Position numbers and translations under genes: made by a program
The notes under the pieces: model-generated
The model's input: only the letters and a program-made list of their open reading frames with translations
Databases searched by the model: none
Told to the model about the DNA's origin: nothing
NCBI RefSeq assembly: GCF_003334305.1
Contig: NZ_QOWS01000043.1
Length of the DNA stretch: 10,116 nt
Direction: 5' to 3' (one strand)
Source of the DNA: Escherichia coli
GTDB taxonomy: Bacteria; Pseudomonadota; Gammaproteobacteria; Enterobacterales; Enterobacteriaceae
Shown: positions 256-5,334 of the stretch, piece after piece
Layout of the letters: every line of letters begins with the position of its first letter
How positions within the stretch are numbered: the first letter of the stretch is position 1

Positions 256-1095
256 TTAATACACTTCATCCAGCACGTTAATTTTCAAAAGATCGCGAAT
301 CAACGTATTTTTATCGCTATTTTGCAGCCATATGGCATAAAGCGGCCGTGAAAGTGTTGTGCTATCGACAACGGTATGCAGGCCGCCTTTTTTACGCGCC
401 CAGCTGACGGGTAGCCAGGTGCAACCATTAAGCATCGCAATCTGTTGCTGTGCCAGTTCAGCAGAACTGGTTGTCAGAATGGGCACTTCGTCAGCACCGA
501 TCAAACCTGCCTCATGCTGTTGAAAATCTGGCCCCCACTCAAGTCGCAGATAATTAAGATCTCCCTTTAGTTTTGAAGGGGCACTGGTATAAAGCGCTAA
601 AGTGAAATATCCCAGCAACTGACTACTAAATTCGTCCATTTTGGGCGCTTCAGTGGTAATAAGAAGATCAAGCTGGCGTTCATGCAGCTGTTTTACCAGA
701 GACTGCCGTTGGGCAATTCGCGCTTCGAACTGTAAGCCTGTATGGGCATCCTGATTTTGATACAAACGTCCCAGCCACTGATTAAGCATACATTCCCACA
801 ATGAGGCGCTGGCACCGATAGAAAACTCGTTATGTCGTGAGGTATGCGCCACCTCCTTGCGGGCGGCCTGCCAGGTGCTCATGAGCGTTTCTGCATAAGG
901 CAGTAGTTTTTCACCGGCAGCGGTTAAACGGATATTGTTTCTGTGGCGGGTGAAAAGGTTCACACCCAGTTGATTTTCCAGTTGTCTGATTCGAAAGCTC
1001 ACTGCTGACTGGGTCAGATAGAGCGATTCAGCCGCTCGACCAAAGTGACGCGTTCGGCTAACTTCCAGGAAAGTTTTTAACAATTCCGTATCCAC
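256..1095 (-). CDS. hdfR: LysR-family transcriptional regulator HdfR (279 aa), GTG start
   Basis: 279-aa ORF with an N-terminal LysR-type helix-turn-helix ([16 protein letters not shown]) and a C-terminal substrate-binding-like domain. The sequence matches HdfR/YifA as recalled. The first codon is GTG (plus-strand cac at 1093-1095), preceded on the coding strand by GGAGAG, an appropriately spaced Shine-Dalgarno. Position between the tRNAs and maoP/comM matches known synteny. Confidence 0.85.
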
Positions 1096-1162
1096 AGTGC
1101 TCTCCGCAAAATTATTTGTCGTTATGATTTAAATGTTTTGTTTTACACTCTGTCAAGCGTAA

Positions 1163-1179
1163 CTAATACTCCGCGCCAT
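1163..1179. promoter_or_regulatory. Candidate maoS site (17-bp cis element of the MaoP/maoS Ori macrodomain system) within the hdfR-maoP divergent promoter region
   Basis: Exact string ctaatactccgcgccat in the hdfR-maoP intergenic region. I recall this 17-mer as the published maoS sequence and this as its reported location. The identity is from memory and needs checking against the literature. Confidence 0.55.
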
Positions 1180-1213
1180 AACTAGCTCGGTCAAAGAATT
1201 AGGAGCGTGCAGG

Positions 1214-1552
1214 ATGGCGGAAAGCTTTACGACGACTAATCGATATTTCGACAATAAACATTATCCACGTGGATTCTCTCGTCATGGTGATTTCACCATC
1301 AAAGAGGCACAACTGCTTGAGCGTCATGGTTATGCCTTCAATGAGTTGGATCTTGGCAAACGCGAGCCGGTTACCGAGGAAGAGAAACTCTTCGTAGCAG
1401 TATGCCGTGGCGAACGTGAGCCAGTGACAGAAGCAGAACGCGTGTGGTCCAAGTATATGACGCGTATTAAGCGTCCAAAACGTTTTCACACCCTTTCCGG
1501 CGGTAAACCGCAGGTTGAAGGTGCTGAAGACTACACCGATTCTGATGATTAA
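1214..1552 (+). CDS. maoP: MaoP / YifE (DUF413 family, macrodomain Ori protein), 112 aa
   Basis: 112-aa ORF with ATG start at 1214 and an AGGAG Shine-Dalgarno at 1201-1205 (8-nt spacer). Sequence [42 protein letters not shown] matches YifE as recalled. Divergent from hdfR, convergent with comM. Confidence 0.85.
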
Positions 1553-1576: not shown

Positions 1577-3097
1577 TTATGTCAGTAGTTTTTGCAGATG
1601 GATGAGCAAACGGTCAATCGCACGATAGCTAACTGCCTCCTGCAAATGCTGACGTGTGATAATGTCAGACTGATCAATATCAGCAATGGTTCGTGCAACT
1701 TTCAATAACCGCTGCCAGGCACGAATCGATAACCCCAGATGGATCAGTGTTCCTTCCAACCACATCGCATCTTCGCTCTCAAGTTTGCAGAATTGGCGTA
1801 TTTCCGGACTATCCAGCCAGGCATTCAGTTTATTCTGCCGCTTAAATTGGCGCTCTCTGGCGGCCATTACGCGTTGTTTAACGGTGGCGCTGCTTTCTCC
1901 CGGCACTACCGTTTTACTCAAAATGCCGGGGGGTGGTAATGGGATCTCCAGTGAGAGATCGAAGCGGTCGAGAAAGGGCCCCGAGAGCCGGTTGAGATAA
2001 CGTAATGTCTGTTCTGGCGTGCAGCGGTTATGGTTTCCCTGATAATGTCCGGTAGGGCTGGGATTCATCGCCGCAACAAGCTGGAAACGGGCTGGATAGG
2101 TTATTTTGGCTCGTGTGCGTGAAAGATGGATCTGCCCGGATTCAATCGGCTCTCGCAAGGCATCCAGTGTACGCCGTTCAAATTCAGGTAGCTCATCAAG
2201 AAAAAGCACGCCGTTATGCGCCAACGAAATTTCACCTGGCCCTGGAATTGCACCACCGCCCACCATCGCAGTTAACGACGCACTGTGATGCGGTGAGCGG
2301 AACGGGCGCTGCCGCCATTGTTTTTGTACTGATTCAGCATTTACCAGACTTAATATCGCAGCGCTCTCCAGTGCCTCTTCATTGCTTAAATCTGGCAACA
2401 GGCCATTAATACGGCTGGCGAGCATTGTTTTACCTGTTCCCGGCGGCCCAATCAGTAAAAGGTTGTGCCCGCCAGCGGCGGTAATTTCCAGTCCTCGCTT
2501 TCCTTGCTCCTGACCGACAACATCACTGAGATCATGTTGTAGCGCCCGGGATACTGCATCAGTTGGTTTCGGGCGTTCGAGAGCGTGCTTACCTTCCAGA
2601 AACGCACAGACAGCCTGCAGATGATCGGCTATCAGGCATCCTTCACCGTTAATTAGCCCCACTTCATCTTCGTTATCTTTCGCGACGATAATTTTTCTGC
2701 CCGACTTAATAGCTTCAGTTGCACTGGAGATTGCGCCGGGAACGCCACGCAGAGCGCCTGTAAGCGCCAGTTCTCCGACTAATTCATATTCATCTAACTT
2801 ATTGGCTGTAAGCTGTTCTGAGGCCGCCAGCAACGCAATGGCGATAGGTAAATCATATCGTCCCCCTTCTTTTGGCAGATCGGCTGGAGCCAGGTTGATG
2901 GTGATTTTTTTCGCCGGATATTCATATCCGCTATTGATAATGGCGCTGCGCACGCGATCGCGAGCTTCTTTTACAGTTGTTTCTGGTAAGCCCACCATCG
3001 TTAAGCCGGGTAGACCTTTACTGATATGTACCTCAACAGTGATTGGGGGCGCATTTACTCCCAGGGCTGCGCGGGTATGAACAATTGACAGTGACAT
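1577..3097 (-). CDS. comM: ComM / YifB, Mg-chelatase-like AAA+ ATPase (competence protein ComM homolog), 506 aa from the downstream ATG
   Basis: Long minus-strand ORF with Walker A (LLLIGPPGTGKTM) and Walker B (VLFLDELPEF) motifs and an N-terminal Lon-protease-like region. The six-frame track starts at the ATG at 3127 (516 aa), but the in-frame ATG at 3095-3097 is preceded on the coding strand by AAGGAGGG with about a 4-nt spacer, a near-consensus Shine-Dalgarno. It gives the 506-aa product beginning MSLSIVHTRA, which matches my recollection of YifB. Confidence 0.85.
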   Translation of the reverse strand: MSLSIVHTRAALGVNAPPITVEVHISKGLPGLTMVGLPETTVKEARDRVRSAIINSGYEYPAKKITINLAPADLPKEGGRYDLPIAIALLAASEQLTANKLDEYELVGELALTGALRGVPGAISSATEAIKSGRKIIVAKDNEDEVGLINGEGCLIADHLQAVCAFLEGKHALERPKPTDAVSRALQHDLSDVVGQEQGKRGLEITAAGGHNLLLIGPPGTGKTMLASRINGLLPDLSNEEALESAAILSLVNAESVQKQWRQRPFRSPHHSASLTAMVGGGAIPGPGEISLAHNGVLFLDELPEFERRTLDALREPIESGQIHLSRTRAKITYPARFQLVAAMNPSPTGHYQGNHNRCTPEQTLRYLNRLSGPFLDRFDLSLEIPLPPPGILSKTVVPGESSATVKQRVMAARERQFKRQNKLNAWLDSPEIRQFCKLESEDAMWLEGTLIHLGLSIRAWQRLLKVARTIADIDQSDIITRQHLQEAVSYRAIDRLLIHLQKLLT

Positions 3098-3304
3098 AAG
3101 CCCTCCTTGAGTCACTATTATGTGCATAAGATATCGCTGCTGTAGCCCGCTAATTCGTGAATTTTAGTGGCTGATTCCTGTTTATTTGTGCAAGTGAAGT
3201 TGAGTTGTTCTGGCGGTGGAATGATGCTCGCAAAAATGCAGCGGACAAAGGATGAACTACGAGGAAGGGAACAACATTCATACTGAAATTGAATTTTTTT
3301 CACT

Positions 3305-3380
3305 CACTATTTTCTTTTTAAAAAACAACAATTTCTATTGAAATTATTAAACGCATCATAAAAATCGGCCAAAAAATATC
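3305..3380 (+). promoter_or_regulatory. AT-rich upstream activating region of the ilv operon promoter (UP-element / IHF-binding region expected here)
   Basis: About 80% A+T stretch with several A5-6 tracts (3320-3325, 3360-3364, 3371-3376) immediately upstream of the candidate core promoter. Published work on ilvGMEDA describes an upstream AT-rich activating region with an IHF site and a non-productive upstream promoter. Exact site boundaries cannot be fixed from sequence alone. Confidence 0.4.
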
Positions 3381-3421
3381 TTGTGCTATTCGCAAAATCT
3401 ATGGTAACTCTTTAGGCATTC
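3381..3421 (+). promoter_or_regulatory. Candidate core promoter and transcription start region for ilvLXGMEDA
   Basis: Candidate -35 TTGTGC (3381-3386) and candidate -10 hexamers in 3400-3410 (tatggt / taactc). A start near 3420 would give a leader of about 180 nt ending at the attenuator T-run (3596-3603), consistent with the recalled leader length. The hexamer assignment is uncertain. Confidence 0.35.
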
Positions 3422-3449
3422 CTTCGAACAAGATGCAAGAAAAGACAAA

Positions 3450-3548
3450 ATGACAGCCCTTCTACGAGTGATTAGCCTGGTCGTGATTAGCGTGGTGGTG
3501 ATTATTATCCCACCGTGCGGGGCTGCACTTGGACGAGGAAAGGCTTAG
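3450..3548 (+). CDS. ilvL: ilv operon leader peptide (32 aa): MTALLRVISLVVISVVVIIIPPCGAALGRGKA
   Basis: ATG at 3450 through TAG at 3546-3548. 15 of 32 codons encode Leu (4), Val (6) or Ile (5), the hallmark of the branched-chain amino acid attenuation leader. An intrinsic terminator lies immediately downstream. Confidence 0.9.
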   Translation: MTALLRVISLVVISVVVIIIPPCGAALGRGKA

Positions 3549-3569
3549 AGATCAAGCCTTAACGAACTA

Positions 3570-3603
3570 AGACCCCCGCACCGAAAGGTCCGGGGGTTTT
3601 TTT
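3570..3603 (+). terminator. ilv attenuator (Rho-independent terminator of the leader transcript)
   Basis: GC-rich stem acccccg (3571-3577) / cgggggt (3590-3596) followed by 8 consecutive T (3596-3603), 22 nt after the ilvL stop codon. Confidence 0.85.
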
Positions 3604-3634
3604 TGACCTTAAAAACATAACCGAGGAGCAGACA

Positions 3635-3685
3635 ATGAATAACAGCACAAAATTCTGTTTCTCAAGATTCAGGACGGGGAACTAA
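3635..3685 (+). CDS. ilvX: Small ORF ilvX (16 aa: [16 protein letters not shown]) between the attenuator and ilvG
   Basis: ATG at 3635-3637 preceded by GAGGAG (3624-3629), stop TAA at 3683-3685, two nt before the ilvG ATG. It matches the position and sequence of the described E. coli small protein IlvX as I recall it. Translation cannot be judged from sequence alone. Confidence 0.55.
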
Positions 3686-3687
3686 CT

Positions 3688-5334
3688 ATGAATGGCGCAC
3701 AGTGGGTGGTACATGCGTTGCGGGCACAGGGTGTGAACACCGTTTTCGGTTATCCGGGTGGCGCAATTATGCCGGTTTACGATGCATTGTATGACGGCGG
3801 CGTGGAGCACTTGCTGTGCCGACATGAGCAGGGTGCGGCAATGGCGGCTATCGGTTATGCCCGTGCTACCGGCAAAACTGGCGTATGTATCGCCACGTCT
3901 GGTCCGGGCGCAACCAACCTGATAACCGGGCTTGCGGACGCACTGTTAGATTCTATCCCTGTTGTTGCCATCACCGGTCAAGTGTCCGCACCGTTTATCG
4001 GCACGGACGCATTTCAGGAAGTGGATGTCCTGGGATTGTCGTTAGCCTGTACCAAGCACAGCTTTCTGGTGCAGTCGCTGGAAGAGTTGCCGCGCATTAT
4101 GGCTGAAGCATTCGACGTTGCCAGCTCAGGTCGTCCTGGTCCGGTTCTGGTCGATATCCCAAAAGATATCCAGCTAGCCAGCGGTGACCTGGAACCGTGG
4201 TTCACCACCGTTGAAAACGAAGTGACTTTCCCACATGCCGAAGTTGAGCAAGCGCGCCAGATGCTGGCAAAAGCGCAAAAACCGATGCTGTACGTTGGTG
4301 GTGGCGTGGGTATGGCGCAGGCAGTTCCTGCTTTACGAGAATTTCTCGCTACCACAAAAATGCCTGCCACCTGCACGCTGAAAGGGCTGGGCGCAGTTGA
4401 AGCAGATTATCCGTACTATCTGGGCATGCTGGGAATGCATGGCACCAAAGCGGCGAACTTCGCGGTGCAGGAGTGCGACTTGCTGATCGCCGTGGGTGCA
4501 CGTTTTGATGACCGGGTGACCGGCAAACTGAACACCTTCGCACCACACGCCAGTGTTATCCATATGGATATCGACCCGGCAGAAATGAACAAGCTGCGTC
4601 AGGCACATGTGGCATTACAAGGTGATTTAAATGCTCTGTTACCAGCATTACAGCAGCCGTTAAATATCAATGACTGGCAGCTACACTGCGCGCAGCTGCG
4701 TGATGAACATGCCTGGCGTTACGACCATCCCGGTGACGCTATCTACGCGCCATTGTTGTTAAAACAACTGTCGGATCGTAAACCTGCGGATTGCGTCGTG
4801 ACCACAGATGTGGGGCAGCACCAGATGTGGGCCGCGCAGCACATCGCACACACTCGCCCGGAAAATTTCATTACCTCCAGCGGCTTAGGCACCATGGGTT
4901 TCGGTTTACCAGCGGCGGTTGGCGCACAAGTCGCACGACCGAACGATACTGTCGTCTGTATCTCCGGTGACGGCTCTTTCATGATGAATGTGCAAGAGCT
5001 GGGCACCGTAAAACGCAAGCAGTTACCGTTGAAAATCGTCTTACTCGATAACCAACGGTTAGGGATGGTTCGACAATGGCAGCAACTGTTTTTTCAGGAA
5101 CGATACAGCGAAACCACCCTTACTGATAACCCCGATTTCCTCATGTTAGCCAGCGCCTTCGGCATCCCTGGCCAACACATCACCCGTAAAGACCAGGTTG
5201 AAGCGGCACTCGACACCATGCTGAACAGTGATGGGCCATACCTGCTTCATGTCTCAATCGACGAACTTGAGAACGTCTGGCCGCTGGTGCCGCCTGGCGC
5301 CAGTAATTCAGAAATGTTGGAGAAATTATCATGA
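3688..5334 (+). CDS. ilvG: Acetolactate synthase II (AHAS II) large catalytic subunit, intact 548 aa
   Basis: Uninterrupted 548-aa ORF starting [25 protein letters not shown] with a thiamine-diphosphate binding motif ([14 protein letters not shown]...LDN). GGGGA Shine-Dalgarno-like sequence 8 nt upstream. Followed by ilvM with a 4-nt overlap. Confidence 0.95.

Follow-up and report, generated by a model that had tools for sequence, protein, structure and literature searches.

In Escherichia coli, the mobility of DNA in the Ori macrodomain is constrained by a site that acts in cis, maoS, together with a protein, MaoP, that acts in cis or in trans (PMC5023128). Valens, Thiel and Boccard, who described this system in 2016 and renamed yifE as maoP, defined maoS as a sequence of 17 nt, CTAATACTCCGCGCCAT, which lies in the 118 bp that separate hdfR from yifE (maoP). 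The site had to be carried by the constrained DNA itself, either the chromosome or a ring excised from it, and the bare 17 nt put on the chromosome restricted the mobility of neighboring DNA over long distances, given MaoP; for this action over hundreds of kilobases the discoverers suggested tracking or loop extrusion (PMC5023128). In the literature, maoS has been called single or unique, both in the original description and in a later follow-up paper. The same spacer was dissected as a promoter in the Reg-Seq study (PMC7567609), where HdfR was found to activate maoP via a region that lies upstream of maoS, as confirmed with a knock-out. Here we examine the hdfR-maoP spacer (1096-1213) in a stretch of E. 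coli DNA of 10,116 nt from contig NZ_QOWS01000043.1, referred to below as the window. Our reading, to which we assign a probability of about 0.8, is that the 17-mer (1163-1179) represents the native maoS site and overlaps the core promoter of maoP.

The 17-mer was found on the plus strand as an exact and unique match in the window; no second site with up to 3 mismatches was present on either strand (0.01 expected in shuffled sequences). A preliminary description of this stretch, made from its letters alone, had placed the 17-mer in a 118-bp region between divergently transcribed hdfR and maoP and had taken it for maoS. Both statements were borne out by the flanking open reading frames (ORFs) and by comparison with the published sequence, to which the 17-mer is identical letter for letter (PMC5023128). 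The observation and its interpretation were correct, yet the feature had already been published in 2016, along with the sequence and location of the site and the fact that enterobacteria conserve it, and we add nothing there. What is added is that the chromosome-organization site and the functional -10 element and discriminator of maoP are the same bases, which links two data sets. This overlap is stated neither in the maoS paper (PMC5023128) nor in the Reg-Seq paper (PMC7567609).

A promoter scan of positions 1000-1650 gave a sole σ70-like site, consisting of TTTACA, a spacer of 17 nt and AATACT, with 9 of 12 consensus matches. The predicted -35 hexamer, TTTACA (1142-1147, plus strand), lies within a conserved stretch, TTTTGTTTTACA (1136-1147), and TTTTGTTTTAC is kept across orders. 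The predicted -10 hexamer, AATACT (1165-1170, plus strand), occupies maoS positions 3-8. It is followed by a G+C-rich sequence, CCGCGCC (1171-1177, plus strand; maoS positions 9-15), which we interpret as the discriminator, and the predicted main transcription start is the A at 1178 on the same strand, 8 nt past the -10 element. With the -10 element at 1165-1170 the start is expected near A1178, so that maoS would extend from approximately -14 to +2 of the maoP σ70 promoter and would take in the two spacer bases nearest the -10 element, that element itself, the discriminator and the predicted start point. In Klebsiella pneumoniae (L078), TTTGAC is found in place of TTTACA at 1142-1147 (GTTTGACGC versus GTTTTACAC), with the rest of the promoter unchanged. 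The Klebsiella change creates TTGACG, which is nearer to the -35 consensus.

The footprints of the Reg-Seq study (PMC7567609) were re-read from the source file of its Figure 8. Position zero in these data is a start mapped by rapid amplification of cDNA ends (RACE), at genome position 3948058, which corresponds to window position 1186. The two strongest same-sign peaks fell on the predicted hexamers in 3/3 maoP data sets. One of these, at -44 to -39 (window 1142-1147), matches the maoP -35 element; the other, at -22 to -17 (window 1164-1169) and with its maximum at -20 (A1166), matches the -10 element. As the peaks coincide with the predicted hexamers, the experimentally important bases are those hexamers. 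A peak of opposite sign was seen at -16 to -11 (window 1170-1175). The C/G-rich stretch past the -10 element, mutation of which raises expression, was interpreted in the study as a repressor site and ascribed to GlpR (PMC7567609); in the glpR knock-out data the opposite-sign peak was weaker, yet still there. The unusual density of function that the preliminary description had attributed to this spacer is thus real, and tighter than supposed, since the core of the maoP promoter is maoS itself.

The whole 118-bp spacer was present at 99% identity or more in all complete E. coli genomes (5,426/5,426), at a median of one place per genome and a maximum of two. Six extra copies of the spacer, including one plasmid-borne copy, were found across the 5,426 genomes; as ectopic maoS is active, cells with a second maoS might merit attention. 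Beyond E. coli, a protein-anchored scan with one genome per species yielded 80 loci, nearly all from Enterobacteriaceae with a few from Erwiniaceae. The 17-mer was exact in 79 of the 80 and carried one mismatch in the remaining locus, and its distance to the maoP ATG was 33-38 nt in every case. Within Enterobacteriaceae the spacer as a whole is nearly invariant, and the 17-mer has no prominence there. In Serratia, Yersinia, Xenorhabdus, Morganella and Leminorella (five further families), the 17-mer was exact and the flanks were changed. When 8 genera from 6 families were aligned (alignment A3), the longest invariant block of the spacer was CTAATACTCCGCGCCATAA (1163-1181, plus strand; columns 78-96 of the first sequence), that is, maoS plus two bases. 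The preliminary description had named two outcomes that would refute it, a published maoS sequence unlike the 17-mer and a lack of conservation at this place in other MaoP-encoding genomes; neither was observed, the motif being conserved there. Since an alignment of eight enterobacteria was already part of the original study (PMC5023128), the conservation seen here is confirmation and not news. Direct repeats of TAACTA flank maoS (at 1160 and 1179, spaced by 19 nt); these are not conserved outside Enterobacteriaceae and were set aside as chance.

The DUF413 family, to which MaoP belongs, comprises about 513 clusters at 50% identity, with members in Endozoicomonas, Marinobacterium, Venatoribacter, Hahella, Gallaecimonas, Shewanella and Pseudoalteromonas, among others. 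Distant loci were gathered one protein at a time, and the DNA motif was not used in choosing them. Upstream of the DUF413 gene, TTTAC followed after exactly 19 nt by ATACTC was found at four loci, two of them from metagenomes (L087/L088 and L090) and the others from Gallaecimonas (L091) and Venatoribacter (L092), with ATACT at a fixed offset of 24 nt from TTTAC. A box of the TCGT-N-ACGA type, located further upstream, was also conserved at the distant DUF413 loci. A metagenome scan for the pattern TTTTGTTTTACC-N18-ATACTCC returned 35 loci, and at 20 of these (15 distinct sequences) a DUF413 gene lay immediately downstream. All 20 had GC next after the pattern, though the pattern left these bases free, and all 20 had a divergent HdfR homolog of 40-64% identity. 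The remaining 15 loci look like chance matches, mostly in A+T-rich DNA.

To judge from these alignments, the deep core of the motif is ATACTCCGC (maoS positions 4-12), which is found, with the predicted promoter spacing kept, beside hdfR-maoP pairs well outside Enterobacterales; the 3' GCCAT and the 5' CTA of maoS are more lineage-specific. The core was seen at hdfR-DUF413 pairs in Oceanospirillales-like genomes, and in Gallaecimonas without a divergent hdfR. The motif is degenerate in Shewanella (S. gelidii), and it was absent upstream of the DUF413 gene in L089, which has no divergent LysR gene, and in a weevil endosymbiont (L093). Thus, it is not universal in the DUF413 family. That maoS is the maoP core promoter in an ancient hdfR-maoP module is a synthesis of existing data with comparative sequence analysis. 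The module of which the motif is part is much older than the bacterial group in which macrodomains were defined. The shared bases also give a concrete way into how MaoP and maoS work, in which promoter function can be set against DNA constraint.

A mechanism can be proposed on this basis. A MaoP-containing complex would recognize the asymmetric maoS sequence on duplex DNA, and the long-range constraint would start from this complex. Because RNA polymerase has to bind and open these same promoter bases, occupancy of maoS would feed back on the transcription of maoP, and probably on that of hdfR as well. maoS would then be an operator of an old hdfR-maoP regulatory module and would double as a nucleation point for constraint of the Ori domain. 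The predicted structure of MaoP gave no match to any solved fold. Taken alone, direct recognition by MaoP and the feedback steps have, in our estimate, roughly even odds. A further step, which we put forward tentatively and regard as somewhat doubtful, is that maoS would not be a free-standing architectural site but a promoter stretch (-14 to +2) in an hdfR-maoP control region that predates Enterobacterales. MaoP would then be primarily a partner or feedback regulator of the HdfR circuit at its own promoter, and the effect on the Ori macrodomain would be secondary and possibly dependent on RNA polymerase.

A candidate HdfR (LysR-type) site was identified at 1112-1127, where two T-N11-A boxes, TTATTTGTCGTTA and TTTGTCGTTATGA (1112-1124 and 1115-1127), overlap; the half-palindrome TCGTTATGA (1119-1127) lies inside it. 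The boxes are located inside the HdfR activator region of Reg-Seq, -100 to -55 (window 1086-1131), and Reg-Seq peaks at -73 to -70 and -62 to -59 (window 1113-1116 and 1124-1127) fall on them. The candidate site is about 36-50 nt upstream of maoS, with the -35 hexamer TTTACA in between. In general, T-N11-A boxes in positions 1080-1230 were as numerous as composition would predict (11 observed, 11.8 expected), and the only one to touch maoS, at 1153-1165, had 1/6 symmetric pairs. The LysR-type box overlapping maoS for which the preliminary description advised a search was therefore not found in any meaningful form. Perfect inverted repeats of at least 5 bases were likewise lacking from 1080-1230, and the 17-mer is asymmetric by eye.

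On the minus strand, a perfect TTGACA (1151-1156), read from the sequence at a place where the promoter scan made no call, is a possible -35 element for hdfR. The corresponding plus-strand bases, TGTCAAG, are kept in most Enterobacterales, and not in Morganella. The sequence TTTACA-CTC-TGTCAA (1142-1156) forms an imperfect dyad in which the maoP -35 hexamer (plus strand) and TTGACA (minus strand) are 3 bp apart, and the two may serve maoP and hdfR as back-to-back -35 elements. A weak TTTAAA (1133-1128) is the only -10 sequence that fits the minus-strand TTGACA. If it serves hdfR, the start of hdfR would lie under the HdfR box, an arrangement known from classical LysR autoregulation.

A genome-wide screen with follow-up assays found the hdfR and maoP knock-outs to be near-identical in their effect on RpoS activity. 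In Yersinia pestis, transposon sequencing (Tn-seq) showed both genes enriched together, with adherence significantly reduced only by deletion of the maoP homolog. A truncating mutation of yifE raised hdfR and gltB mRNA, and truncation of yifE in E. coli raised putrescine output (PMC8674398). At some of the distant loci, a rimK-like ATP-grasp gene (Gallaecimonas, L091 1921-2796; Shewanella, L129 1893-2798) or a RimB-like gene (Venatoribacter, L092 1841-2281) comes after the DUF413 gene. The RimK- and RimB-like neighbors and the effects of yifE truncation are hints that the HdfR/MaoP module is linked to glutamate or polyamine metabolism.

Some observations weigh against our reading. Reg-Seq works from a RACE start at 1186, 16 nt past the -10 element, and not from one at 1178; a second RACE start further upstream was reported without a coordinate (PMC7567609). 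Reg-Seq also ascribes the footprint over 1161-1175 to GlpR and not to MaoP. Deletion of hdfR caused markers to be more constrained, the opposite of the effect of maoP deletion (PMC5023128), which is contrary to a simple model in which HdfR activates maoP. The preliminary description had mentioned HdfR as implicated in the MaoP/maoS system; this holds loosely, by the activation of maoP in Reg-Seq and by the likeness of the knock-outs, but the opposite effect of the hdfR deletion does not fit.

The 17-mer might be conserved only as the core of the maoP promoter, and the macrodomain effect might arise indirectly, via promoter activity or RNA polymerase occupancy, without recognition by MaoP. The position of maoS on the -10 hexamer, the discriminator and the predicted start would agree with this, as would the promoter spacing retained by the deep core and a MaoP model that lacks a recognizable DNA-binding fold. 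However, 17 nt without the -35 element constrain a neighboring marker at an ectopic place, and do so only when MaoP is present (PMC5023128). Moreover, 19/19 bases are invariant in six families, including bases of the discriminator and start that promoters normally tolerate changing. We therefore consider this explanation improbable.

An explanation that we likewise hold to be unlikely is that maoS is the operator of another regulator, either GlpR or HdfR bound as a tetramer at a promoter-proximal site, and that MaoP acts through that protein. Among LysR-type regulators, it is common for the tetramer to touch a second site close to the -35 or -10 element. The Reg-Seq study places a GlpR repressor site at -25 to -11 (window 1161-1175), with support from a glpR knock-out (PMC7567609), and the DNA constraint is altered by hdfR deletion (PMC5023128). 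Nevertheless, the HdfR-dependent footprint is at 1086-1131, no meaningful T-N11-A box or dyad covers maoS (the sole overlapping box has 1/6 symmetric pairs), and the opposite-sign peak, weaker, is still present in the glpR knock-out data. In addition, the motif is found together with hdfR-maoP pairs in different orders. The sequence of maoS is presumably also unlike that of the glp operators. Both of these explanations are less likely than recognition of maoS by MaoP. A chance resemblance to maoS in an ordinary spacer can be dismissed, as 17/17 bases match in the very spacer of the original study (PMC5023128) and about 0.01 sites with up to 3 mismatches were expected.

The window is collinear with positions 3,946,873-3,956,988 of MG1655 at 98.5% identity, with no difference in the hdfR-maoP spacer. 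The gene order is tRNA-Asp (partial), tRNA-Trp, hdfR, maoP (yifE), yifB and the ilv operon, and in the RefSeq annotation of MG1655 these genes lie at matching window offsets. The hdfR coding sequence (256-1095, minus strand) has a GTG start, and its product, a LysR-type regulator, was identified by the NCBIfam equivalog NF002946 (535 bits; cut-off 240). The maoP (yifE) coding sequence (1214-1552, plus strand) specifies a DUF413 protein of 112 amino acids, identified by an NCBIfam equivalog (254 bits; cut-off 181) and, on homologs, by Pfam PF04219; YifB also matched an NCBIfam equivalog. The spacer between these divergent ORFs has the length stated in the original study (PMC5023128). A Shine-Dalgarno sequence for maoP, AGGAG (1201-1205, plus strand), was read from the sequence and is invariant in alignment A3. 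An Rfam search of the window found no RNA family within the hdfR-maoP spacer. A 2019 review (PMC6389857) equates MaoP with YifB, the neighboring AAA+ protein, and lists it as ATP-dependent. Contrary to that review, MaoP is YifE (DUF413, 112 amino acids) and not YifB; in the original maoS study, deletion of yifB was without effect (PMC5023128).

Several other features of the window were noted. ilvG (3688-5334) is an intact ORF of 548 amino acids, as opposed to a frameshifted pseudogene in MG1655, and from the ilvG position onward the window is 2 bases longer than MG1655. The window is thus from a non-K-12 strain of E. coli. An Rfam match to RF02744 (Rev39 5' untranslated region, soft-rot Enterobacteriaceae; 157 bits) covers 3379-3668, where the ilvL leader and ilvX precede ilvG. 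AAAAAGGGCGAAATGCCCTTTTTTT (1553-1580), in the gap between the convergently transcribed maoP and yifB, forms a hairpin that is bordered on either side by A and T runs and looks like a bidirectional terminator; a terminator scan gave no call there, probably because the T run sits inside the stem. The longest yifB ORF has 516 amino acids (1577-3127, from an upstream ATG) versus 506 in RefSeq (1577-3097), and the NCBIfam YifB model is covered end to end by the 506-amino acid form. In most of the draft assemblies (L002-L081), the contig stops 1.1-1.6 kb upstream of maoP. The rRNA operon that we take to lie just past tRNA-Asp and tRNA-Trp, at the start of the window, fits these contig ends.

The closest known system is maoS of E. 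coli K-12 itself (PMC5023128), with which the window shares the same 17 bases, the 118-bp spacer and the neighbor genes, the spacer being identical to that of MG1655. There is no difference in the site, and the strain of the window is non-K-12 (98.5% identity, intact ilvG). The matS/MatP system of the Ter macrodomain is similar in that a short DNA site and a small dedicated protein define a macrodomain. matS is palindromic, and maoS differs from palindromic sites of the matS or parS type in having no perfect inverted repeat of at least 5 bases. There are 23 copies of matS over 800 kb, and binding by MatP has been demonstrated (PMC5023128), whereas maoS is described as single and lies on a promoter, and its recognition by MaoP is inferred. 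MaoP and MatP both belong to a set of proteins that co-evolved with Dam (PMC5023128).

The parS/ParB systems resemble maoS and MaoP in that one or a few cis sites sit near the origin, not far from the gene that encodes the trans-acting protein (for parS, next to or inside the par operon), and have effects over long distances. Plasmid par systems, moreover, combine operator and centromere functions. The parS site, in contrast, is palindromic. ParB works as a CTP-dependent clamp and contains a helix-turn-helix, and no similarity to ParB was detected for MaoP (DUF413). The maoP promoter itself is like stringent promoters such as rrnB P1 in having a non-consensus -10 element followed by a C/G-rich discriminator, which at maoP gives a repressor-like signal in mutagenesis. 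Finally, the locus resembles other divergent LysR-type promoters, such as ilvY-ilvC, which starts at the far end of the window, in its divergent regulator and target, its compact spacer, and the T-N11-A site upstream of the -35 element of the target. Unlike ordinary promoters of that kind, the maoP core promoter bears a second, separately defined cis function.
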